Below, piece by piece: positions 36,057 through 48,158 of a DNA stretch of 64,000 bases (positions within the stretch are counted from its first letter, which is position 1; each line of letters opens with the position of its first letter). The stretch is taken from assembly GCA_964549305.1 (NCBI GenBank), contig CAZJVM010000004.1, forward strand, positions 6,738-70,737. Direction: 5' to 3'. The position numbers were made by a program, and so were the translations under genes. A model generated the notes under the pieces. It searched no databases. It worked only from the letters and a program-made list of their open reading frames with translations, and had not been told where the DNA came from. The DNA is from an uncultured bacterium. Lineage in GTDB: Bacteria; Schekmanbacteria; GWA2-38-11; J061.

Positions 36057-37478
36057 TTGGACATAGTAATCGGACAACTTAACTCGATACTCGGCAAGGA
36101 TAACGTAATCACCGATCCGAATGAGCTTTCCGCATATTCAGACGGAAATCTCACTTTTATTCCTCCCCGTTCTCCGATTTTTGCCGTAAGACCCTCGAAT
36201 TCCGAAGAAATAAGAGAAATACTCAAGGTCGCCGCTTTAAACAAGATACCCGTAACTCCTTCGAGCTCCGCAGGGTCGGGACACGGAGGTTCCATTCCTG
36301 CGGTACCCGGCATTACAATTGACCTCAGACGTATGAAGAATATCGAACTTATCGACACATCGAGCAGAAACGCGATTATAGAACCGGGAGTCACCTTTTC
36401 CGAACTTCAGGAGAAAGCGCATGAACAGGGACTGAGAGTATTGACACCCGTTGAAATAACCGCCGGTTCATCGGTCCTTTCCACATATCTTGATATGGTG
36501 CCGCTTTTTTCATGGCCAAGATACGGAACGGAATCAATTCTCACAATGGAAACGCTCATTCCAAACGGCGAACTGATAAAAACAGGTATAGCGGCAATTC
36601 CCGTAATAGACAAACCCTATTTCCCCTTTGGCACAAACCCCTCTTACATCAACAAAATATGGTTCGGCGCTCAGGGGACTCTGGGCATTGCGACCAAAGC
36701 AGTGATAAAACTTAAAACACTTCACAAAACGGTTAAAACTCTCTTCATTCCCGTCAATAGTTTCGAAGAGTCCTTCCCCGTCTTGAAGGAGTTAAAGAGA
36801 TTCGGTTATGCTGTTGAATTTTTCCTTGCAAACCCCACATATCTTGCCGGAATGATTGCAGATGACGAACAGGAACTTTCCGAAATAGCCAAAACTCTGC
36901 CTCCTGTAACTGCCGTCATAGTACTTCGCGGTGAAGAGGAAGAGGTTGAATATCAGAGAGAGGACATCGCCGAGCTTTGCGCAAAATTCAAACTTGATTG
37001 TCTTGAAGAGCTTTCGGGAGTGGAAAATGCCGCTTCTAAAATACTCGATGAAATCGAAAATCCTGGCGGATATGAAAAGAGAAAAAGCTTCAAGGGAGGT
37101 TACTGCGTCATTCCTTTTATCTGTATGCTTCCGCAAATTCCAATGTTCAGACGTGTTTTGGGACAAATGACTCAGGCATTCAAGTATAATTCCGCCGATA
37201 TCGGAGAACTTTTCATACCTGTTGAACCTGCTCGCGGGCATTTTCAGTACAGTTTCCGCTATAATCCCGAAAATCCTCAGGAGATGATGATAACAAAAAA
37301 ACTTTTTGAGGTACTGAGCGGAGCGCTCATAAAAATGGGCGGATTTTTTTCGAGACCCTACGGAAACTGGGCGGAATTGGTCTATGGGAAAGCAGGTGCC
37401 TATAAAACAATGTTAAGAAATATCAAGGAAACAATTGACCCTGAAAATATAATGAATCCCGGAAGGTTAAATTTGTAG
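36057..37478 (+). CDS. FAD-binding oxidoreductase (FAD_binding_4, VAO/PCMH/GlcD superfamily)
   Basis: ITIDLRRMKNI, IIEPGVTF, GAQGTLGIATK, IDPENIMNPG. Confidence 0.88.
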   Translation: MDIVIGQLNSILGKDNVITDPNELSAYSDGNLTFIPPRSPIFAVRPSNSEEIREILKVAALNKIPVTPSSSAGSGHGGSIPAVPGITIDLRRMKNIELIDTSSRNAIIEPGVTFSELQEKAHEQGLRVLTPVEITAGSSVLSTYLDMVPLFSWPRYGTESILTMETLIPNGELIKTGIAAIPVIDKPYFPFGTNPSYINKIWFGAQGTLGIATKAVIKLKTLHKTVKTLFIPVNSFEESFPVLKELKRFGYAVEFFLANPTYLAGMIADDEQELSEIAKTLPPVTAVIVLRGEEEEVEYQREDIAELCAKFKLDCLEELSGVENAASKILDEIENPGGYEKRKSFKGGYCVIPFICMLPQIPMFRRVLGQMTQAFKYNSADIGELFIPVEPARGHFQYSFRYNPENPQEMMITKKLFEVLSGALIKMGGFFSRPYGNWAELVYGKAGAYKTMLRNIKETIDPENIMNPGRLNL

Positions 37479-37488
37479 GAAACAGAAT

Positions 37489-38688
37489 ATGACTGAAGAA
37501 TATTGCTACCCATTTACAAGAAAAAAACTCAGCGATTATTACGAAATGCTGTGGCGCTGCGCAAAGTGCGGTTATTGCCGCAATGTTTTCCCTTCTGATA
37601 CCGAAGACGAAAGATTCGCAAGGCAATGCCCACCGGGCGAAAGATTCAGATTTGAGGCGTACTACGCATCAGGACGTAACGAGATAACCAGAAAAATGAT
37701 TGAAGGCAAGCAGAGTCTCACTCCTCGCCTCAGGCACATCCTCTACACGTGCACAACCTGTAATGCCTGCGAAGAATGGTGCGAAGTGACACAGGGCTTG
37801 AATACCTTAAAGATAATCAATGCCGTTAGAAAATATTTTGTCGAGCACGGTGGTGAACTTTTGCCTGGCCACGAAAAAATCATCAAAGGCATCAGGCGAA
37901 ACCATAACCGCCTCAACAGAAATAACAGGGACAGGCGCGGATGGCTTGAAGATGCGGCATCCGAAAAAACTGAACAAGCCGATGTCGCCTATTTCGTAGG
38001 TTGCAGGTCATCGTTCAGAAGAACTGAAATAGCAAACAACGCCTACGAGCTTTTGACGAAAAAACTCGGTATCGGCATAACCTTTCTCGAGGACGAAAGA
38101 TGCTGCGGAAGGCCATTGCTTGAAATAGGGGCGGAAAAGGACGCTTTTAAACTCATGTCCCACAATCTTGAAGAAATAAAAAAAACCGGCGTAAAAACTG
38201 TCCTCTTTACCTGCGCCGAATGTTTCTCTCTCTTCAACGACCTCGAACGCTACGGCTTTGAAAAAGATTTTGAAACAATTCATATAAGCGAATATCTTGC
38301 AAGAGTGATAAAAGAAAAAGGTGTTTCCTTCAATGAAATGCCAAAAAAAGTAACATTTCACGACCCCTGCTATCTCGGAAGACATCAGGGCATTTATGAA
38401 GACCCGAGAAACGTAATCGCTTCCATTCCGGGCACCGAGCTTGTGGAAATGCCGAGAAACCGCAAAAATGCCTGGTGCTGCGGCGCGGGAGGCGTGGTGA
38501 AGGAAGCATATCTCGATTACTCTCATTGGATTGCCGCGGAAAGATTCGAGGAGGTCAAAAAAACCGAAGCACAAATGCTTATTACTTCCTGTCCCGGGTG
38601 CAAAGAAAGCTTATGGGGACAGGCTAAAGTCAATAATGTCGAAATCTTTGACCTTGCTGAACTTATAAACAAACAGATTAAGGGTTGA
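37489..38688 (+). CDS. (Fe-S)-binding CCG-domain protein (GlcF/HdrD-like)
   Basis: CAKCGYC..CP, CTTCNAC..WC, YFVGC, RCCG, TCAEC, HDPCYLG, WCCGAGG, SCPGC. Confidence 0.9.
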   Translation: MTEEYCYPFTRKKLSDYYEMLWRCAKCGYCRNVFPSDTEDERFARQCPPGERFRFEAYYASGRNEITRKMIEGKQSLTPRLRHILYTCTTCNACEEWCEVTQGLNTLKIINAVRKYFVEHGGELLPGHEKIIKGIRRNHNRLNRNNRDRRGWLEDAASEKTEQADVAYFVGCRSSFRRTEIANNAYELLTKKLGIGITFLEDERCCGRPLLEIGAEKDAFKLMSHNLEEIKKTGVKTVLFTCAECFSLFNDLERYGFEKDFETIHISEYLARVIKEKGVSFNEMPKKVTFHDPCYLGRHQGIYEDPRNVIASIPGTELVEMPRNRKNAWCCGAGGVVKEAYLDYSHWIAAERFEEVKKTEAQMLITSCPGCKESLWGQAKVNNVEIFDLAELINKQIKG

Positions 38689-38691
38689 TAA

Positions 38692-40185
38692 ATGGAAGAG
38701 TTTACAAAGGAAAACAGCCGGATTCTCTTTGAGCTGGCCAATATAGTGGGAAACGAGTGGGTGTCAAACGAACCGGAAATAATCTATGCCCATTCAAGAG
38801 ACGTCAATATGTATCCTGACAACCTGTCTTCCGTTTTGAGACCGCCTCATTATGTGGTGCTTCCGGCAAATTCGGAAGAAGTCCAGAAAATAGTAAGCAT
38901 AGCAAAAAACCACAAGATACCCATAACGGTCCAGACAACGGGACTGAACATTGCCGGAGTTTGCGTCCCTCCAAAGGGCGGCATTCTTATGGATATGAAA
39001 CGACTGGACAAGATTTTGGAAATAGACGAAGTAAATTGCACGGCTACCATACAACCTTACGTAACCATAGCTCGCCTTTCCTGCGAACTTCAAAAGAGAA
39101 AAATGTTCCTTCCTGTTCCGGGCAACCCCTCAACGGCAAGCGTTATTTCAAACATACTAGTAGGTCTCGGACTGAAAGTCACTAACCGTGTCGGAAGGCA
39201 GGAACAGGGAATCGTAGGGTTTAAAATGGTGCTTCCTGACGGAAGTTTCTTCAAGGTCGGTTCGGGCGCGGACCCCTTCATACCGAAAGATTTCTGGCCT
39301 CACGGACCGGGGCCCGACCTTCAGCTCTTTCCTGTACATTCCATAGGAACAACAGGAATAGTAACGGAAATGACTATTAAATGCTGGCTTCGCGGAGAAA
39401 AATACAAAGAACTCTGGGTGTCCTATGAAGATATAGACAATGCTGGGAAAGCTTTTGCGGAGCTTGCAAAAAAAGAAATCTGCAAGGGAATAAATCTTTA
39501 CGGTGGAAATAAATATACTTCTTACGCCACAGACACCCGTGAAGCAATGGAAAGGATGATAAGGGCAAACCCGGAATTTCAGCTTGTCCTGTCAATGGAA
39601 GGCACGCAAAGAAGAATTGATTATGAAGAAAAAGTTGTAAGACAGACGGCTGAAAAAACCGGAGGAATAATAATCACTGACAAATTCAAACCTTACGAAA
39701 GCTTCGAAGAATCTCACTTAGGAATGTCAGGAAGTTTTTATTCCGACTATTCAATGAAGTACTGGGGTTCAAGGGGTGCAAACTGGGTTGCAGCAGGTTT
39801 CCCGTCTCCTGAAAGAGTTGCTGATATGTACAAGGCATATTGTCAGGCGATAATGGACGACCCCGAATATTCAGACCCGGATTTCGGCAACGGTGAATAC
39901 TGGCGTTCGATTATCGCCTATCCCTATGAAGGAGGACATTATTTCTTTAACGAACACGGAATAGACAGCCATCCCGGAGACCCTAAATGGCAGGAAGTTG
40001 TCAAACGAATAGGTTCTGCAATACCCCGTTACGGAGCACAGCGAGGTCTGCTGATAATGGGATTTAACCGCGCACCGAGGGAAGGCCTGCCACGCGTCAC
40101 CGGTCCCTATTATGATGTCGCAAAGGGAATTAACAGCAAGCTTGACCCTGGGGGAATAATGCAGCCAGGATTCGTATTTCCTTAA
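38692..40185 (+). CDS. Second FAD-binding oxidoreductase (FAD_binding_4)
   Basis: GGILMDMKRLDKILEID, IQPYVT, GTTGIVT, LDPGGIMQPG. Confidence 0.88.
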   Translation: MEEFTKENSRILFELANIVGNEWVSNEPEIIYAHSRDVNMYPDNLSSVLRPPHYVVLPANSEEVQKIVSIAKNHKIPITVQTTGLNIAGVCVPPKGGILMDMKRLDKILEIDEVNCTATIQPYVTIARLSCELQKRKMFLPVPGNPSTASVISNILVGLGLKVTNRVGRQEQGIVGFKMVLPDGSFFKVGSGADPFIPKDFWPHGPGPDLQLFPVHSIGTTGIVTEMTIKCWLRGEKYKELWVSYEDIDNAGKAFAELAKKEICKGINLYGGNKYTSYATDTREAMERMIRANPEFQLVLSMEGTQRRIDYEEKVVRQTAEKTGGIIITDKFKPYESFEESHLGMSGSFYSDYSMKYWGSRGANWVAAGFPSPERVADMYKAYCQAIMDDPEYSDPDFGNGEYWRSIIAYPYEGGHYFFNEHGIDSHPGDPKWQEVVKRIGSAIPRYGAQRGLLIMGFNRAPREGLPRVTGPYYDVAKGINSKLDPGGIMQPGFVFP

Positions 40186-41057: not shown

Positions 41058-42344
41058 ATGGCTGAAACAGCAAAGAAGAAGTTCATGGGAGTGGAAATCC
41101 CGGAAGGCCTGAAAAAAGCCAATTTTCTTGCTCTTTTTCTGGGTACGACACTTGGAGGACTAGTTACAAACTCTATTAACGCAATTCAGCACAGTTATTT
41201 GAAAGATTTTCTAAAAGTACCTCAGGAATCCTTCGGCACTGTAAGCGGTACATTAATGACTGTAGGAGAAATCGCGGCAATTATCTTCCTTTTTCTCTTT
41301 GGTGTAATCGCAGACAAGATAGGAAGAAAAACCGTTATTACAATCGGATATATTGGCGCGACATTTGCCTACCTCTTCTTTTTTCACAGCGTAGATATTG
41401 CCAATATGTTAGGCATAAACCCTCTGCCTTTAGCTTATGCAGGAAGATTTCTGATTGTTGCAACTGTTGCAGCCATCTGGGGCACATACATCATAGTCGC
41501 CGCAGACTATACAGATGAAGCAAACCGAGCAAAGGGTATGGGATTGAACGGTATATTCACGGGATTCGGTATGCTTCTGGCAATGGGAGTTTTTGCTTCT
41601 CTTCCAAATCAAATCGGCACAAGAAACACATTTTATTTTGTTGCCTGCCTTTCAGTTGCCTCACTTATTTATGCCCGCATAGCACTTGTTGACCGATTTA
41701 CCGCAGAAGAGAAGAAACCCGGCGATACGGGACAGGTTAGAAAAATAATCGATGCTCTTAAAAACTCTCCGCCCCTTGTAATGTGTTACGCGGCAAGATT
41801 TTTCGTAATGTCGGCGGTTATCACCGTAGGTACATTCATTTTTGTATGGGCAGTTAACGAAGCGCCCAACCTTGGCGTAAAACCGGAAGCGGCACAGATG
41901 AAAGTGGGAATGTTTATCGGGATATCAGGCCTTGTTGCATTTATAGGTTTTCCCGTATTTGCCATAATGTGTGACAAACTCGGAAGATACGTTACTTTAT
42001 CAATATCTCTCGGTCTTGCCGGAATATCACTAATCAGTTTCGGATTGATAGATAATCCGATTTCCTGGCCAATTCTTTTATGTATGATGGTTTTCTTCTT
42101 CAGTCAGGCGGGAATGCTTCTTTCATCGCAGACCCTCGCATCTGACCTTGCGCCAAAGGAAGTAATGGGAACGGTTCTCGGCGGATTAAATACCGTTGGA
42201 CAGATCGGCGCCGCTGTTTTTTTCTCAGTTGACGGCATTGCAATGGATAAGATAAGCCCTCAAGCTCCCTACGTAATAATGGGTGTTTGCTGTATCCTTA
42301 TGATAATCTGGGTCATGGGAATAGGCGTCAAAGTTAAAAAATAG
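41058..42344 (+). CDS. MFS transporter
   Basis: 12 TMs; motif A GVIADKIGRK and its repeat DKLGRY. Confidence 0.93.
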   Translation: MAETAKKKFMGVEIPEGLKKANFLALFLGTTLGGLVTNSINAIQHSYLKDFLKVPQESFGTVSGTLMTVGEIAAIIFLFLFGVIADKIGRKTVITIGYIGATFAYLFFFHSVDIANMLGINPLPLAYAGRFLIVATVAAIWGTYIIVAADYTDEANRAKGMGLNGIFTGFGMLLAMGVFASLPNQIGTRNTFYFVACLSVASLIYARIALVDRFTAEEKKPGDTGQVRKIIDALKNSPPLVMCYAARFFVMSAVITVGTFIFVWAVNEAPNLGVKPEAAQMKVGMFIGISGLVAFIGFPVFAIMCDKLGRYVTLSISLGLAGISLISFGLIDNPISWPILLCMMVFFFSQAGMLLSSQTLASDLAPKEVMGTVLGGLNTVGQIGAAVFFSVDGIAMDKISPQAPYVIMGVCCILMIIWVMGIGVKVKK

Positions 42345-42422: not shown

Positions 42423-43610
42423 TTACTGCTGTTTTATTCTGCAGGCAAGAATCTTTCCGATCTCCTCGAGCTTTTCAAAATCGCCGTTTAACGGAGGGCC
42501 GTTAACCTCACAGCTTCCCACAACTTCAACCTTCGCAAGCTCAAGGAGTTTAGTTACTTCCTTAACGGAACATCCGCCCCATCCGTAGGAACCCACAACA
42601 GCGGAATATTTAAGGGGAGGCCTGAATGCCCGAACAAGGCTTGCCGCATACAACGCGAGAGGATGGATACCGGCCATAACCGTAGGTGAACCGATTACAA
42701 TCGCTCTTGAATCGACAAGATCTTTTGCCACATCACCCGAGTCCGTCGCGGTAAGATTGTACATACTCACTTCAATACCTTCGGACAAGAGCTTTTCTGC
42801 CACCGCCTTAGCCATCTTCTCAGTAGACCCCCACATACTTACATAAGCAATAATGGCTTTCTCATCGGTTTCTCCGGCAGTCCATTTTTTATAAACAGAG
42901 ATAATTTTGTCAGGGTTTCTGTAAACCGGACCATGGCTTGGGGCAATCATGGATACTTCCATTCCTTCGAGTTTATCCATCGCCTTCTTTCCAAGGGCCC
43001 TGAAGGGCATCATTATTTCACCATAATATTTTTGTGCGCCGCTTACTATATCTTTTACATCAGTATCAAAAACTCCCTTTGCAAAGTGGCTTCCGAAAAA
43101 GTCACAGGGAAAGAGAATTTTGTCTTCAACCAGATAAGTGAACATCGTTTCAGGCCAGTGAAGCCAGGGAGCATCTATAAATTTCAGGGTCTTGCCGCCA
43201 AGGTCAATGGTCTCGCCTTCCTTTACCTTGATAATTCTGTCTGCAGGAGCATTATGCATAACCTCCGCCATTTTTGCTCCCTTCTCGGAAGTAACGAGCT
43301 TCGTTTTGCCGCTCATCTCCAATACATAGGGAATTGCTCCTGCATGGTCCGGTTCGGCGTGATTCATTACGATATAATCTATCTCTCCGTCACCGAGAAG
43401 CTGTTTTATCTTTCCGCCCAGTTCATCCTGAAAACAGGGTTTGATTGTCTCTATCAAAGCTGTCTTTTCGCTGCCCTTAACGATATACGAATTATAGCTT
43501 GTGCCATAGGGAGTAGGAATCAAAGCGTCAAAAAGCTTTAGGTCCCAATCCCTTGAGCCAACTGCATACACACCTTCCGAAATCTCAGGAATAGAATAGT
43601 TTTTCATCAT
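42423..43610 (-). CDS. fprA: Flavodiiron protein (FprA/NorV family)
   Basis: GTSYNSY, NHAEPDH, WLHWPE, CDFFGSH, PSHG, flavodoxin domain (YVSMWGST, IGSPT, GSYGWG). Confidence 0.95.
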   Translation of the reverse strand: MMKNYSIPEISEGVYAVGSRDWDLKLFDALIPTPYGTSYNSYIVKGSEKTALIETIKPCFQDELGGKIKQLLGDGEIDYIVMNHAEPDHAGAIPYVLEMSGKTKLVTSEKGAKMAEVMHNAPADRIIKVKEGETIDLGGKTLKFIDAPWLHWPETMFTYLVEDKILFPCDFFGSHFAKGVFDTDVKDIVSGAQKYYGEIMMPFRALGKKAMDKLEGMEVSMIAPSHGPVYRNPDKIISVYKKWTAGETDEKAIIAYVSMWGSTEKMAKAVAEKLLSEGIEVSMYNLTATDSGDVAKDLVDSRAIVIGSPTVMAGIHPLALYAASLVRAFRPPLKYSAVVGSYGWGGCSVKEVTKLLELAKVEVVGSCEVNGPPLNGDFEKLEEIGKILACRIKQQ

Positions 43611-43780: not shown

Positions 43781-43809
43781 TTGACATTTCTGAGCCATTT
43801 ATGTAAATG
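43781..43809 (+). promoter_or_regulatory. Putative sigma70 promoter of the riboswitch/porin/tup transcript
   Basis: TTGACA-N17-TAAATG, about 20 nt upstream of the aptamer. Confidence 0.5.
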
Positions 43810-43830
43810 CCACGGAGAAACTGTAAACAA

Positions 43831-43925
43831 CTCCGAATTCAGTTACCTAATGTGCAGTTGCACGATGGTGCGGAATCGATAGGGTTATGCCGGAAACAGC
43901 ATAGCCTCCCGTATTTGGAAAGGAG
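43831..43925 (+). ncRNA. Moco-family riboswitch, P3-less (tungsten-cofactor-associated) variant
   Basis: CTCCGA..., CCTAA...ATGGTGC, AGGG, P4 GGTTATGC-CGGAAACA-GCATAGCC, TCCCGTATTTGGAAAGGAG 3' signature; CTCC/GGAG closes P1; lies upstream of tupABC. Confidence 0.88.
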
Positions 43926-43949
43926 AAAAAATATGTTTTTTCACATTAG

Positions 43950-43990
43950 AAGCCGGTAAACTGCTAAACAGATTGCCGGCTTTTCTTTTT
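43950..43990 (+). terminator. Leader intrinsic terminator (riboswitch expression platform)
   Basis: AAGCCGGTAA (43950-43959) / TTGCCGGCTT (43973-43982) followed by TTCTTTTTT, 100 nt before the porin ATG. Confidence 0.8.
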
Positions 43991-44089
43991 TAAGTCCTGC
44001 CGTACAAAAAATAATAAACTCACTTTCTGTTATTTCAGTTTTAATTTTAAAACTTACAAACCATTTAATGTAAATGAGGAGGACCGTTT

Positions 44090-45577
44090 ATGAAAAGATA
44101 TTTCAAGGCAGTTTTGTTATCAGCAGTATTCATTATATTATCGCCATTTTCATCATTTGCAGGGCAGAGCAGTCAGATAGAAGAACTCAAACAGCAGATG
44201 GAATCACTTAAACAGGAATATGAAGATAAATTCCAGCTTCTGCTTAACAAAATTGATGAGCTTAAATCCCAGCAGGAAGCAAAAGATAATGAAAACAGAG
44301 AAAGAATTAAAAAAGAAGTTGAAAATATAAAAGCTGTTGCCGTGCAGAAAGATGAGGAAAGAAAAAAAGAAATCACAGATCTCAAAACTGCGCTTGAAGA
44401 ACAAAAGAAAAAATCACTGCTTGCCGGCTTTGACGGAAAACACTTTACCCTTGGAAGTGCAGACGGCAACTTCAAACTTAATCTCGGCGGATATATGCAG
44501 ACGGATTACCGCTACTATGAAGGCGGAGAAGACGCAAATAATAAAAACACCTTTGATGTAAGAAGAGCAAGACTTACTGCAAGCGGCAATATGTCTAAAA
44601 ACATAAAGTACAAACTTCAGGCGGATTTCTCCGACGAGGTTGACGAGCTTCGCGATGCTTATGTAGATTTAAACTACACTCCTTTAGCTGTCGTACGTGC
44701 AGGTCAGTTCAAAGTACCTTTTGGCTATGAGCAGGTAACATCTTCGACTACATTTGACTTTATAGAGCGTTCCGTTGCAGGCAATTTCATCGCCTCAACA
44801 TCAAGAGATATAGGAGTAATGGTATTCGGTTCAGTCCTTGATAAACGCATTAATTACTACCTCGGAGCGTTTAACGGAACAGGTGAGAACATGACAGATG
44901 ACAACGACAGCCTTACTTTCATAGGAAGACTTCTCTTTTCTCCATTTGCGGATAATGAAGATTCCGTACTTCAGGGCCTGACATTCGGCGGTTCATTCTC
45001 CGGCGGAGACAGAGAAGCACACAGTTCAAGATCAATTACTCTTGCAGCATTAAATAAAATATCCAACACTGTAACCGTCAACGGACAGCGCACGAGAGCA
45101 GCAGCCGAAGCAAGATACTTCAACGGACCTTTTTCCCTTAAAGGCGAGTATTACTACCAGAGAGAGGAAAGAAACAACATTGGTGGCACTGATTTCGAAG
45201 ATCTCATCACGCAGGGTTTTTACGGCATAGCAACATACGTTCTTACAGGTGAAAAGAAGGTCGACAACGCAAATATCGTTCCTACGCACAACTTCAACCC
45301 TTCAACAGGCGAATGGGGCGCATTCGAGCTTGCGACAAGATACTCCTATTTTGACCTTGATAAAGCAAGCGGCACGGACCCTGTGCTTACAGATGAAAAT
45401 ATTGCGGCAAATACAGTTCAGGGCGTCACATTCGCGCTTAACTGGTATTTCAACAAATACCTGAAGCTTATGGCTGATTATTCCTTCTTCGATTTTGACA
45501 GGCAGGAGAACCTCTCACATCCTTCAATCGGAGACTCGACAAATCAGTTTTCCGCGCGCCTTCAGGTTAAGTTTTAA
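44090..45577 (+). CDS. OprO/OprP-family anion-selective porin with N-terminal coiled coil
   Basis: Signal peptide, ~85 aa heptad region, GGYMQTDY, FDVRRARL, GQFKVPFGYE, FIERS, RDIG, GAFELATRYS, LNWY, C-terminal Phe (RLQVKF). Confidence 0.85.
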   Translation: MKRYFKAVLLSAVFIILSPFSSFAGQSSQIEELKQQMESLKQEYEDKFQLLLNKIDELKSQQEAKDNENRERIKKEVENIKAVAVQKDEERKKEITDLKTALEEQKKKSLLAGFDGKHFTLGSADGNFKLNLGGYMQTDYRYYEGGEDANNKNTFDVRRARLTASGNMSKNIKYKLQADFSDEVDELRDAYVDLNYTPLAVVRAGQFKVPFGYEQVTSSTTFDFIERSVAGNFIASTSRDIGVMVFGSVLDKRINYYLGAFNGTGENMTDDNDSLTFIGRLLFSPFADNEDSVLQGLTFGGSFSGGDREAHSSRSITLAALNKISNTVTVNGQRTRAAAEARYFNGPFSLKGEYYYQREERNNIGGTDFEDLITQGFYGIATYVLTGEKKVDNANIVPTHNFNPSTGEWGAFELATRYSYFDLDKASGTDPVLTDENIAANTVQGVTFALNWYFNKYLKLMADYSFFDFDRQENLSHPSIGDSTNQFSARLQVKF

Positions 45578-45608
45578 ACAAACTTAAAATTAAATAAGGA
45601 AAATACAA

Positions 45609-46439
45609 ATGAAAATAAGATATAGATTTAATATCTTTTCAATTACTGTAATATTCGTTTTTGCTTTCGCTCTGCTATTTACTGCGCAGGTCAAGGCGGA
45701 AACAAGACTTAAAATGAGCACCACGACAAGCACTGAAAACTCAGGGCTGCTCTCTGTCCTTATCCCCCCCTTCGAAAAGGATAACGGTATTAAAGTGGAT
45801 GTAATTGCCGTCGGGACAGGAGCAGCTTTGAAGCTTGGAGAAAACGGAGATGTAGATGTCGTCTTTGTCCATTCACGCCCTGATGAAGATAAATTTGTCA
45901 GCGACGGGTTCGGAGTTTACCGTAAGGACGTTATGCACAATGATTTTGTAGTATTAGGTCCAAAAAAAGACCCTGCCGGGGTAAAGGGTTCGGTTTCAGC
46001 CTCAGAAGCTTTCAAAAAAATCTCTGAAACAGCATCACCATTTGTCTCAAGGGGCGACAATTCAGGCACCCACAAGAAGGAATTAATTGTATGGAAAAGT
46101 GCCGGAATTGACCCGAAAGGCAAATGGTATATAGAGGCAGGTCAGGGAATGGGTGCCGTTCTTCAGATAGCAGATGAAAAGCAGGGCTACACACTTTCAG
46201 ACAGAGGAACGTATCTTGCCTACAAGGATAAAATAGATATCTCAATAGTTTTTGAAGGAGATAAGGCATTATTCAATCCTTACGGGATTATTGCAGTTAA
46301 CCCTGAAAAACATCCGCATACTAAGTTTGAACTTGCAAAAAAACTGGTTGATTTTATAACCGGTCCCAAGGGTCAGAAAATTATAAAAGATTTTAAAATT
46401 AACGGCGAACAGCTTTTTTATCCCGATGCTGTTAAATAA
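45609..46439 (+). CDS. tupA: Tungstate ABC transporter substrate-binding protein
   Basis: TupA signature TTTSTENSGLL, GTGAAL, MHNDFV, SRGDNSGTH, YTLSDRGTY. Confidence 0.95.
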   Translation: MKIRYRFNIFSITVIFVFAFALLFTAQVKAETRLKMSTTTSTENSGLLSVLIPPFEKDNGIKVDVIAVGTGAALKLGENGDVDVVFVHSRPDEDKFVSDGFGVYRKDVMHNDFVVLGPKKDPAGVKGSVSASEAFKKISETASPFVSRGDNSGTHKKELIVWKSAGIDPKGKWYIEAGQGMGAVLQIADEKQGYTLSDRGTYLAYKDKIDISIVFEGDKALFNPYGIIAVNPEKHPHTKFELAKKLVDFITGPKGQKIIKDFKINGEQLFYPDAVK

Positions 46440-46474
46440 GGAATTAAACCGGTTCTTCAAAAAAATGAGCAGAG

Positions 46475-47170
46475 ATGGGTTACTTTACAAAAACGCTTTA
46501 TTCAGCTTTAAAGCTGATTTTTGAACTTGATAGTGAAACATATATTATAGTCTGGACATCACTGAAAGTATCCGTCTCTGCCACTTTTTTATCTTCACTC
46601 ATAGGTATTCCTGCCGGTCTTTTTATCTCTCTTAAACGCTTCAGAGGAAAGCAGTTCATTCATCTTCTTTTAAATACTCTGATGGCTCTTCCTACTGTTG
46701 TTGTAGGGCTTTTCTTTTATGCCCTTTTGAGCAGGCAGGGTCTTTTGGGAAATTTCGGATTTCTGTATTCGCAGGCAGGCATCATAATCGGCGAAACATT
46801 TCTCGCACTTCCCATAATTGCAAACTACACGGTTTCCGCTGTATCAGGCGCTGACTCGCGCCTTCTTACAACCTGCAAATCTCTTGGCGCAACAGCAACT
46901 CAGCAGGCAATGTTATTTTTAAAAGAAGCAAGATTTGCAATCGTTGCGGCTGTTGTCGCAGGATTTGGGCGGGTAATCGCCGAGGTTGGAGTAGCAATGA
47001 TGCTTGGAGGAAACATAAGGGGATTCACAAGGACAATGACAACTGCAATCGCCCTTCAAACAAGCAAGGGAGAATTTGAACTCGGGCTTGCTCTCGGAAT
47101 TATGCTTCTCTCAACTGCATTTGCCGTCAATATCTTTTTATTCTTTTTTCAGAGAAATAAAAATGAGTGA
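46475..47170 (+). CDS. tupB: Tungstate ABC transporter permease
   Basis: LMALPTVVVGL, GFGRVIAEVG..MMLGGNIRGFTRTMTTAIAL. Confidence 0.95.
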   Translation: MGYFTKTLYSALKLIFELDSETYIIVWTSLKVSVSATFLSSLIGIPAGLFISLKRFRGKQFIHLLLNTLMALPTVVVGLFFYALLSRQGLLGNFGFLYSQAGIIIGETFLALPIIANYTVSAVSGADSRLLTTCKSLGATATQQAMLFLKEARFAIVAAVVAGFGRVIAEVGVAMMLGGNIRGFTRTMTTAIALQTSKGEFELGLALGIMLLSTAFAVNIFLFFFQRNKNE

Positions 47171-48158
47171 TATCTACATATTAAAAAATATCATCTGCAA
47201 GTACGGTGAGGAGGTTGTACTAAATATTCCGGCCCTTAAAATTGCGGAAGGAAAAATTACGGCAATCGTTGGCGCAAACGGTTCGGGGAAAACAACGCTT
47301 TTGCGACTCCTGTCCTTTCTTGATTTCCCCTTGTCAGGTGATATTCTGTTTAAAGGAGAAAAGGCGGAAAAAGAGAATGTATTCGCGTTGAGACGGCGGA
47401 TTGGACTCCTCCCGCAAAATCCCTATCTTTTTCATTCAACAGTACTTTCCAATGTTGAAACGGGATTGAAGATAAGAGGCATCCCCTCTGCGGAAAGAAG
47501 AAAGCTTGCCGAAGATTCTCTGAAAAAAATCGGACTTTCAGGATTTGAAAAAAGAATGGCTCATAAGCTTTCGGGCGGTGAGGGACAGAGAGTCGCCCTT
47601 GCGAGAACGATTTGCACAAACCCCGAAGTGCTGATTCTCGATGAACCGTCAACTTATATGGACAGAAATAATATTATACGTACTGAAAAACTCATCGATG
47701 AGTATAACAGGAAGGAAGGCAAAACAGTGGTATTCACCACACAGGATTTACACCGCGCGCAGGCAACGGCAGACATAGTACTTACTCTTTTCAGAGGTAA
47801 TCTCATCACCGCGTCTCTTGCAAATCTCTTCCACGGTAAAATCACAAATAACGGAACAACCTTTGATACGGGAAGGGCAAAAATTGAAATCACCTCACCC
47901 AAAGGGGATGAAGGACATCTCAGTATTGACCCCGCAAACATTGTAATATCAACAGAATCTCTCACATCAAGTATGAGAAATTCCTTAAGGGGGAGAATCA
48001 TCGCAGTAATCGAAGAGAGCGGAAAAGTAAGAATTGAAGTTGAAGCAGGAGAAAAGTTCCACGCTTATATTACCAAGAAATCTCTCACTCTCCTTAATCT
48101 TCATATCGGTGATGAAGCGTGGATATCATTCAAGTCAACAGCAGTTGAGGTTTTTTGA
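47163..48158 (+). CDS. tupC: Tungstate ABC transporter ATPase with C-terminal TOBE domain
   Basis: GANGSGKTT, LSGGEGQRV, ILDEP, SSMRNSLRGRI...ITKKS...L.L..G...FKS. Start 47163 overlaps the tupB stop. Confidence 0.92.
   Translation: MSDIYILKNIICKYGEEVVLNIPALKIAEGKITAIVGANGSGKTTLLRLLSFLDFPLSGDILFKGEKAEKENVFALRRRIGLLPQNPYLFHSTVLSNVETGLKIRGIPSAERRKLAEDSLKKIGLSGFEKRMAHKLSGGEGQRVALARTICTNPEVLILDEPSTYMDRNNIIRTEKLIDEYNRKEGKTVVFTTQDLHRAQATADIVLTLFRGNLITASLANLFHGKITNNGTTFDTGRAKIEITSPKGDEGHLSIDPANIVISTESLTSSMRNSLRGRIIAVIEESGKVRIEVEAGEKFHAYITKKSLTLLNLHIGDEAWISFKSTAVEVF

Follow-up and report, generated by a model that had tools for sequence, protein, structure and literature searches.

A porin of the OprP family behind a Moco/Tuco riboswitch and ahead of tupABC: a credible candidate for outer-membrane entry of tungstate and molybdate in Schekmanbacteria

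The porins OprP and OprO of Pseudomonas aeruginosa (2o4v, 4rjw) belong to the Pfam family PF07396, and OprP shares the phosphate-starvation regulon with the pst importer. A PF07396-type porin is also found in a non-phosphate oxyanion context, namely ExtI of the selenite/tellurite reduction operon of Geobacter (NF040900). Among riboswitches, the P3-less RNAs of the molybdenum cofactor (Moco) family have been tied to the use of the tungsten cofactor (Tuco) and to tup genes (Regulski et al. 2008, PMC2408646). We analyzed a 64-kb stretch of DNA from an uncultured bacterium of the Schekmanbacteria (contig CAZJVM010000004.1, assembly GCA_964549305.1; hereafter the window), in which a Moco/Tuco riboswitch is followed by a porin gene of this family and by the tungstate importer genes tupA, tupB, and tupC. 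We propose the porin as a credible candidate for a channel dedicated to the entry of tungstate and molybdate (W/Mo, from the metals tungsten and molybdenum) through the outer membrane. In reviews, molybdate and tungstate are taken to diffuse unspecifically across the outer membrane by way of porins (PMC8264917). No molybdate or tungstate porin of such a kind was found in the full-text literature, in which subscription-only papers could not be searched; the first-pass annotation of this DNA had likewise been aware of no characterised metal-oxyanion porin.

We compared the locus with the described systems. OprP and OprO are the best structural match to the window porin, but the identity is merely about 21-23%, and the window porin adds an 80-residue N-terminal helix. 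Its partners are tupABC and a cofactor riboswitch, whereas those of OprP are pst and PhoB. The joint regulation of OprP with pst nonetheless parallels the encoding of the window porin with a high-affinity importer. The riboswitch has the RNA family, the P3-less class, the terminator-type platform, and the tungstate transport genes in common with the published Tuco riboswitches (PMC2408646), but that publication mentions no porin or other outer-membrane gene under their control, while the porin is the first controlled gene here. The ExtI model was the best NCBIfam match of the window porin, but a weak one, which reached 40.9 of the 150 bits required and covered residues 113-291 only, and the porin is therefore not an ExtI member. 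In addition, the ExtI operon forms an electron conduit, while the window operon encodes an importer. Stalked porins of the OmpM/SlpA type, such as Veillonella OmpM1 (8byt), have a long periplasmic helix before the barrel, as the window porin does, but the window porin has no SLH domain, matches them much more weakly than OprP, and has only partial heptads. Two elements are new here: the substrate predicted for this specific porin of the OprP family, and the riboswitch that would regulate it.

An Rfam scan of the window returned one family only, the Moco/Tuco riboswitch RF01055, which scored 75.3 bits (gathering score 36, E = 2e-16) and spans model positions 1-135. It lies 5' of the interval covered by the first-pass annotation (44090-48158). 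The columns of the P3 hairpin are deleted in the cmscan alignment and the aptamer is otherwise full length, as in the P3-less ('Tuco') class. A strong intrinsic terminator starts nine bases 3' of the aptamer. It comprises a hairpin at 43952-43980 (GCCGGTAAACTG - loop CTAAA - CAGATTGCCGGC), with a stem of 12 pairs including one mismatch, and then TTTTCTTTTTT to 43991. The minimum free energy (MFE) fold of 43815-44000 includes this hairpin (z = -3.8 versus shuffles). The stem and the T-run are maintained in two relatives although the sequence differs, and the orthologous riboswitches in the related loci L001 and L002 score 79.7 and 74.9 bits against RF01055. A spacer of about 100 nt separates the terminator from the ribosome-binding site of the porin, whose GGAGG is kept across the alignment of three leaders. 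The TTGACA of a promoter-like site upstream of the aptamer (Table 1) is kept in the two related loci, and the sequence suggests a promoter at this position with a transcript start right before the aptamer. This site failed a consensus promoter scan, however, and scans for promoters and terminators gave no more sites than in shuffled sequence.

It is the porin, and not tupA, that stands directly behind the riboswitch and terminator, and the porin is followed on the same strand by tupA after 31 nt, by tupB after a further 35 nt, and by tupC with an overlap (-8 nt). The 31-nt gap between the porin and tupA is AT-rich, contains a ribosome-binding site, and has no hairpin, and the interior of the operon yielded neither a terminator nor a convincing promoter. 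The whole arrangement, including the riboswitch, the -35 element, the terminator, and the gene order, is common to three Candidatus Schekmanbacteria assemblies, which are close relatives with porins 81-86% identical. The first-pass annotation is borne out in these respects: it had described this order, a porin-tupA gap free of hairpins, a TTTS-bearing TupA, and a porin with Arg-rich OprO/P-like motifs and a terminal Phe, and the translation of the porin does contain DVRRARL, FIERS, RDIG, and a C-terminal ...VKF.

The importer genes were identified as follows. In the PDB, TupA matches the structure of its Geobacter sulfurreducens counterpart (3lr1, E = 4e-106) as well as 5my5 (E = 2e-71), and it scores 269 bits against the NCBIfam TupA equivalog model, under its strict cut-off of 400. 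TupB exceeds the cut-off of the NCBIfam ABC_perm1 model and reaches 199.5 bits with the TupB model, below the equivalog cut-off. The top NCBIfam matches of TupC are WtpC and TupC. One permease and a TOBE-bearing ATPase thus stand in one operon with tupA, as in TupABC importers. The start of tupC is most likely the ATG at 47163 and not the TTG at 47076, because the gene is so called in relatives (331 aa in L002). The GC content of the operon (0.39-0.44) shows no anomaly and resembles that of the flanks, and we therefore rejected a horizontal transfer of the operon.

The porin scores 153.6 bits with the PF07396 profile (Porin_O_P; cut-off 20.9, E = 1e-44), and its residues 131-495 align with profile positions 2-370 of 370. 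Sequence matches in the PDB include OprP (2o4v, E = 4e-16) and OprO (E = 2e-13). We built an AlphaFold2 model on 28 homologs, with a predicted local distance difference test (pLDDT) score of 78.8. After a signal peptide (about residues 1-24), the model predicts a charged helix at 29-108 and a beta-barrel at 110-494, and the chain ends with a Phe. The top three Foldseek matches of the model are 2o4v, 4rjw, and 4rjx (best E = 2e-27, target TM-score 0.73-0.75); general porins rank next with E = 1e-15, twelve orders of magnitude weaker. The model and the sequence matches agree in giving the porin the OprP/OprO fold and family membership. Because of this membership, the porin would be expected to form a trimeric, anion-selective 16-strand barrel.

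We then mapped the binding-site and ladder residues of OprP on a 165-sequence alignment. OprP has an arginine ladder of R34, R59, R60, R133, R218, R220, R226, and R242 and a central site of K121 and D94. The window porin keeps R59, R60, R133, S124, R186, R337, and K378. It has Q215 in place of K121, Y135 in place of R34, and N322 in place of R242, as well as R for Y62 and K for Y114. R218 and R220 fall in gaps and the outer arginine ladder has no counterpart. R226 aligns to R314, but in an unreliable loop. The column of D94 holds R188 (MAFFT) or D193 (HMMER). The full arginine ladder and the K121/D94 site were thus not recovered. Basic residues conserved in at least 85% of 163 environmental relatives are R141, R158, R159, R161, K170, R203, K208, R227, R239, R280, R336, R417, K459, and R490. 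For eight of these, OprP also has a basic residue in the aligned position, R59, R60, and R133 among them. This conserved set fits an anion channel.

The predicted helix is continuous over about 80 residues, starts about 5 residues past the signal peptide, and has a middle part with many E, K, and R residues. The first-pass annotation had described a coiled coil of about 85 aa here. The helix is indeed predicted, but clear heptad periodicity is confined to about residues 30-58, and the entire segment is no better than shuffles. A charged stretch free of Pro and Gly before the barrel is common family-wide irrespective of the partner importer, with median lengths of 35 aa in sulfate-linked and 29.5 aa in phosphate-linked porins. 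In the clades defined below, it measures 41-44 aa in clade C, is nearly missing in the tup/mod-linked clade B (2-21 aa), and is longest in Schekmanbacteria (87-91 aa). We therefore rejected as unsupported the earlier suggestion that the helix hands the anion to TupA, since the helix does not follow Mo/W linkage and its heptads are local; it is as likely to stabilise the trimer or to span the periplasm.

To place the locus in its family, we searched genome and metagenome collections for the best porin relatives and gathered 174 loci that encode them. Counting the window, 136 loci had enough flanking sequence to be informative. Neighbours were counted when within 3 kb on the same strand, and were classed by reference proteins checked against NCBIfam. 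A TupA-type binding-protein gene was adjacent in 19 of the 136 loci and modA in 3; these 22 loci fall into at least three well-supported separate clades. The sulfate importer genes sbp-cysTWA were the neighbours in 82 loci and the phosphate importer genes pst in 8, modABC was located 3-7 kb away in 2, and the remaining 22 had no recognised neighbour. Linkage to a W/Mo importer is therefore not unique to this genome; uniqueness would have undone the first-pass proposal. That proposal saw a repurposed phosphate porin, which is too narrow, as sulfate importers are the partners of the majority of the closest relatives. Taken as a whole, the porin family looks like one of oxyanion channels, whose genes stand next to those of a matching ATP-binding cassette (ABC) importer, for sulfate, phosphate, or molybdate/tungstate.

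The closest homologs of the window porin are 86% and 81% identical, one of them from a Candidatus Schekmanbacteria metagenome-assembled genome (MAG). Outside this group, the gene order of the window, porin-tupA-tupB-tupC, recurs in L120 and in MAGs of Myxococcales (L022) and Desulfurellales (L017), and porin-modA-modB-modC is found in L104 and L105, all five in clade B. L019 has a porin followed by modA, and L171 has a modE-type helix-turn-helix (HTH) gene, a porin, and tupA. In a Methylomirabilota cluster (clade C; L004, L009, L013, and others), the order is modE-type HTH gene, mop, tupA-like gene, porin, MOT1, modB, modC, and moaC. The TTTS motif is present in all TupA-type partners. ModE-type regulators replace the riboswitch in Methylomirabilota and in L171; no regulator was recognised at the other Mo/W-linked loci outside Schekmanbacteria.

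Two further observations were made on these loci. In the Methylomirabilota cluster, a gene of the MOT1 family (PF16983), a molybdate transporter type known mainly from plants and algae, lies directly after the porin (4551-5711 in L004, 5350-6510 in L009). The sulfate-linked porins lie directly upstream of sbp-cysT-cysW-cysA, for example in L053 (7938-13064), L075 (7914-13001), L122, and L129 (range L021-L170), in Acidobacteriota, Thermoanaerobaculia, Verrucomicrobiota, and other MAGs. These "phosphate-selective" porins look like sulfate-associated channels that are probably misnamed.

We constructed a neighbour-joining tree of the porins with 100 bootstraps. The Mo/W-linked porins form three separate clades with a bootstrap of 100 each: A (Schekmanbacteria), B (L022, L017, L120, L104, and L105), and C (Methylomirabilota). 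The sulfate-linked porins form a single clade (bootstrap 99). The sister of clade C (bootstrap 77, nested in a node with 98) is phosphate-linked wherever the flank suffices, and clade C arose separately. Within clade B, tup-linked and mod-linked porins are intermixed. One Methylomirabilota contig, JACQQF010000062.1, encodes two paralogous porins that share 48% identity and are separated by about 9 kb (L014, 7992-9395; L020, 7866-9374), one in a modE-mop-tupA-like cluster and the other directly before pstS-pstC-pstA-pstB. The retention of two diverged paralogs, each by a different importer, argues that these channels are not interchangeable. The pair offers natural material for a study of anion specificity.

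We suggest the following mechanism. The porin, tupA, tupB, and tupC would be read as one transcription unit from a promoter just upstream of the riboswitch. When the W (or Mo) pterin cofactor is plentiful, it would bind the aptamer, and the terminator would halt transcription before the porin, acting as an OFF switch. When the cofactor is scarce, read-through would allow the channel of the outer membrane to be made together with the ABC importer of the inner one. The porin would then provide facilitated diffusion of tetrahedral tungstate or molybdate across the outer membrane and feed the high-affinity TupA. Molybdate and tungstate are present at nanomolar or lower concentrations and are needed by every Mo or W enzyme. 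Such a channel could be useful when the anions are so dilute outside the cell that uptake would be limited by a general porin. The channel is not expected to discriminate W from Mo, because of the mixing of tup- and mod-linked porins in clade B and because the two anions are nearly the same size. On balance, and with moderate confidence, we favor the view that the porin serves W/Mo uptake.

If this is true, a dedicated channel under cofactor control would supply a missing first step in the W/Mo uptake pathway and widen the substrate range of the OprP family. Should the porin and its tup/mod-linked relatives in fact be W/Mo-specific, PF07396 would comprise substrate-matched subtypes for sulfate, phosphate, and Mo/W, and the outer-membrane passage of trace oxyanions would be a regulated and specific step, not passive leakage through general porins. 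Many environmental porins annotated as "phosphate-selective" are probably associated with sulfate or Mo/W. The paralogs linked to the three kinds of importer form a set for studying how narrow channels distinguish similar tetrahedral anions.

A number of results weigh against a role in W/Mo uptake or against the stronger forms of it. The assignment of W/Mo as substrate comes entirely from the gene neighbourhood, and the loci were chosen as best matches to the window porin, so that the proportions given above do not describe the family at large. The pairing of riboswitch and porin was found in Schekmanbacteria only; Rfam scans of another 16 loci that are Mo/W-linked or candidates detected no Moco riboswitch. 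Ten large open reading frames (ORFs) of the window were tested for tungsten enzymes, and none was identified. The deep nodes of the neighbour-joining tree are weak (bootstrap 25-38), and clades A and B may thus have a common origin. We also listed the alignment columns in which the Mo/W clade of Methylomirabilota differs from its phosphate-linked sister, and found no residue, in the OprP-site columns or elsewhere, that is common to the three Mo/W clades and absent from other porins. The segment aligned to OprP T123-W127, for example, reads TSSTT in clade A, LSKRY in clade B, and FSDNN in clade C. No code of specificity residues could be derived, as the discriminating residues differ among the clades. 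In the sequence, a finely selective W/Mo site is not evident, and selectivity cannot be read from it; the tungstate selectivity put forward in the first-pass annotation does not follow. We consider it doubtful, if a serious possibility, that the porin is truly W/Mo-selective and that its tup/mod-linked relatives are Mo/W-specific channels with their own binding site.

The same absence of a common signature would be expected if the porin were an unselective channel for small anions, passing phosphate, sulfate, molybdate, and tungstate alike, and co-expressed with tupABC to raise outer-membrane permeability with no dedicated W/Mo site. The conserved basic residues, which are identical in sulfate-, phosphate-, and Mo/W-linked members, and the mixed partners within clade B agree with such a channel. 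However, the two paralogs that one Methylomirabilota contig keeps beside different importers are hard to explain if the channels are interchangeable, and the coherence of the sulfate-linked clade suggests partner-specific lineages. We regard an unselective channel as rather unlikely.

The porin is very unlikely to be a plain phosphate porin orthologous to OprP, placed upstream of tupABC by chance and expressed from signals of its own, such as Pho control. Its matches do carry the Pfam and database name "phosphate-selective porin", and R59, R60, and R133 of OprP are conserved, but the replacements at K121 and R34 and the missing outer ladder speak against a phosphate site of the OprP kind. A chance position fits poorly with a riboswitch and terminator placed before the porin instead of tupA, with the short terminator-free gap to tupA, and with the recurrence of the linkage in unrelated lineages. 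Furthermore, a search for E. coli-type Pho boxes found none in the leader and only chance-level matches across the window, although this consensus may not be that of the host phylum. We give equally little credence to a mainly structural stalked porin, whose helix would tether or space the outer membrane as in OmpM/SlpA and whose operon position would be secondary. The long helix before the barrel and the presence of Veillonella OmpM1 among the structural matches (rank 10) recall such proteins. OmpM1 was matched with E = 3e-14, however, against 2e-27 for OprP/OprO; Pfam detected no SLH or other peptidoglycan-binding domain in the porin, whose helix begins right after the signal peptide; and control by a cofactor riboswitch would be unexpected for a structural envelope protein.

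Table 1 Features of the riboswitch-porin-tupABC locus and of its surroundings, in window coordinates.
Feature	Position	Strand	Evidence or remarks
FAD_binding_4, Fer4_8/CCG, FAD_binding_4 cluster	36057..40185	+	Pfam assigned on L001-L003 orthologues, not on window ORFs
Major facilitator superfamily (MFS) transporter	41058..42344		Follows the FAD_binding_4 cluster
Flavodiiron-type protein	42423..43610	-	ODP metallo-beta-lactamase and flavodoxin domains
Promoter-like site	43782..43810	+	TTGACA -35 (43782-43787), 17-nt spacer, weak -10 TAAATG
Moco/Tuco riboswitch aptamer, P3-less	43819..43941	+	Rfam RF01055
Intrinsic terminator (expression platform)	43952..43991	+	Sequence and MFE fold
Ribosome-binding site GAGGAGG	44076..44082	+	Sequence; 7 nt 5' of porin ATG
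OprP/OprO-family porin, 495 aa	44090..45577	+	PF07396; PDB sequence matches; AlphaFold2/Foldseek
tupA, periplasmic tungstate/molybdate-binding protein	45609..46439	+	PF12849, E = 1e-50; TTTS at residues 38-41
tupB, ABC permease	46475..47170	+	PF00528; NCBIfam ABC_perm1, 228 bits
tupC, ABC ATPase with C-terminal TOBE (Mo/W-binding) domain	47163..48158	+	ABC_tran, E = 6e-32; TOBE, E = 2e-10
Hydrophobic membrane-like ORF, 234 aa	48189..48893	-	No Pfam match
P-type ATPase, 909 aa	50495..53224	-	Three N-terminal metal-binding GMxCxxC repeats; CPC and DKTGT motifs

The genes flanking the operon were also inspected. The flavodiiron-type gene is divergent from the riboswitch leader, and its position is kept in the related Schekmanbacteria loci. 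The hydrophobic ORF is convergent with tupC and lies 30 nt past it. Farther downstream, the P-type ATPase looks like a copper/heavy-metal exporter, judging from the motifs in its translation. On the upstream side, the FAD_binding_4 cluster, with the MFS transporter after it, looks like a glycolate/lactate-oxidase-type complex and is syntenic in related MAGs.

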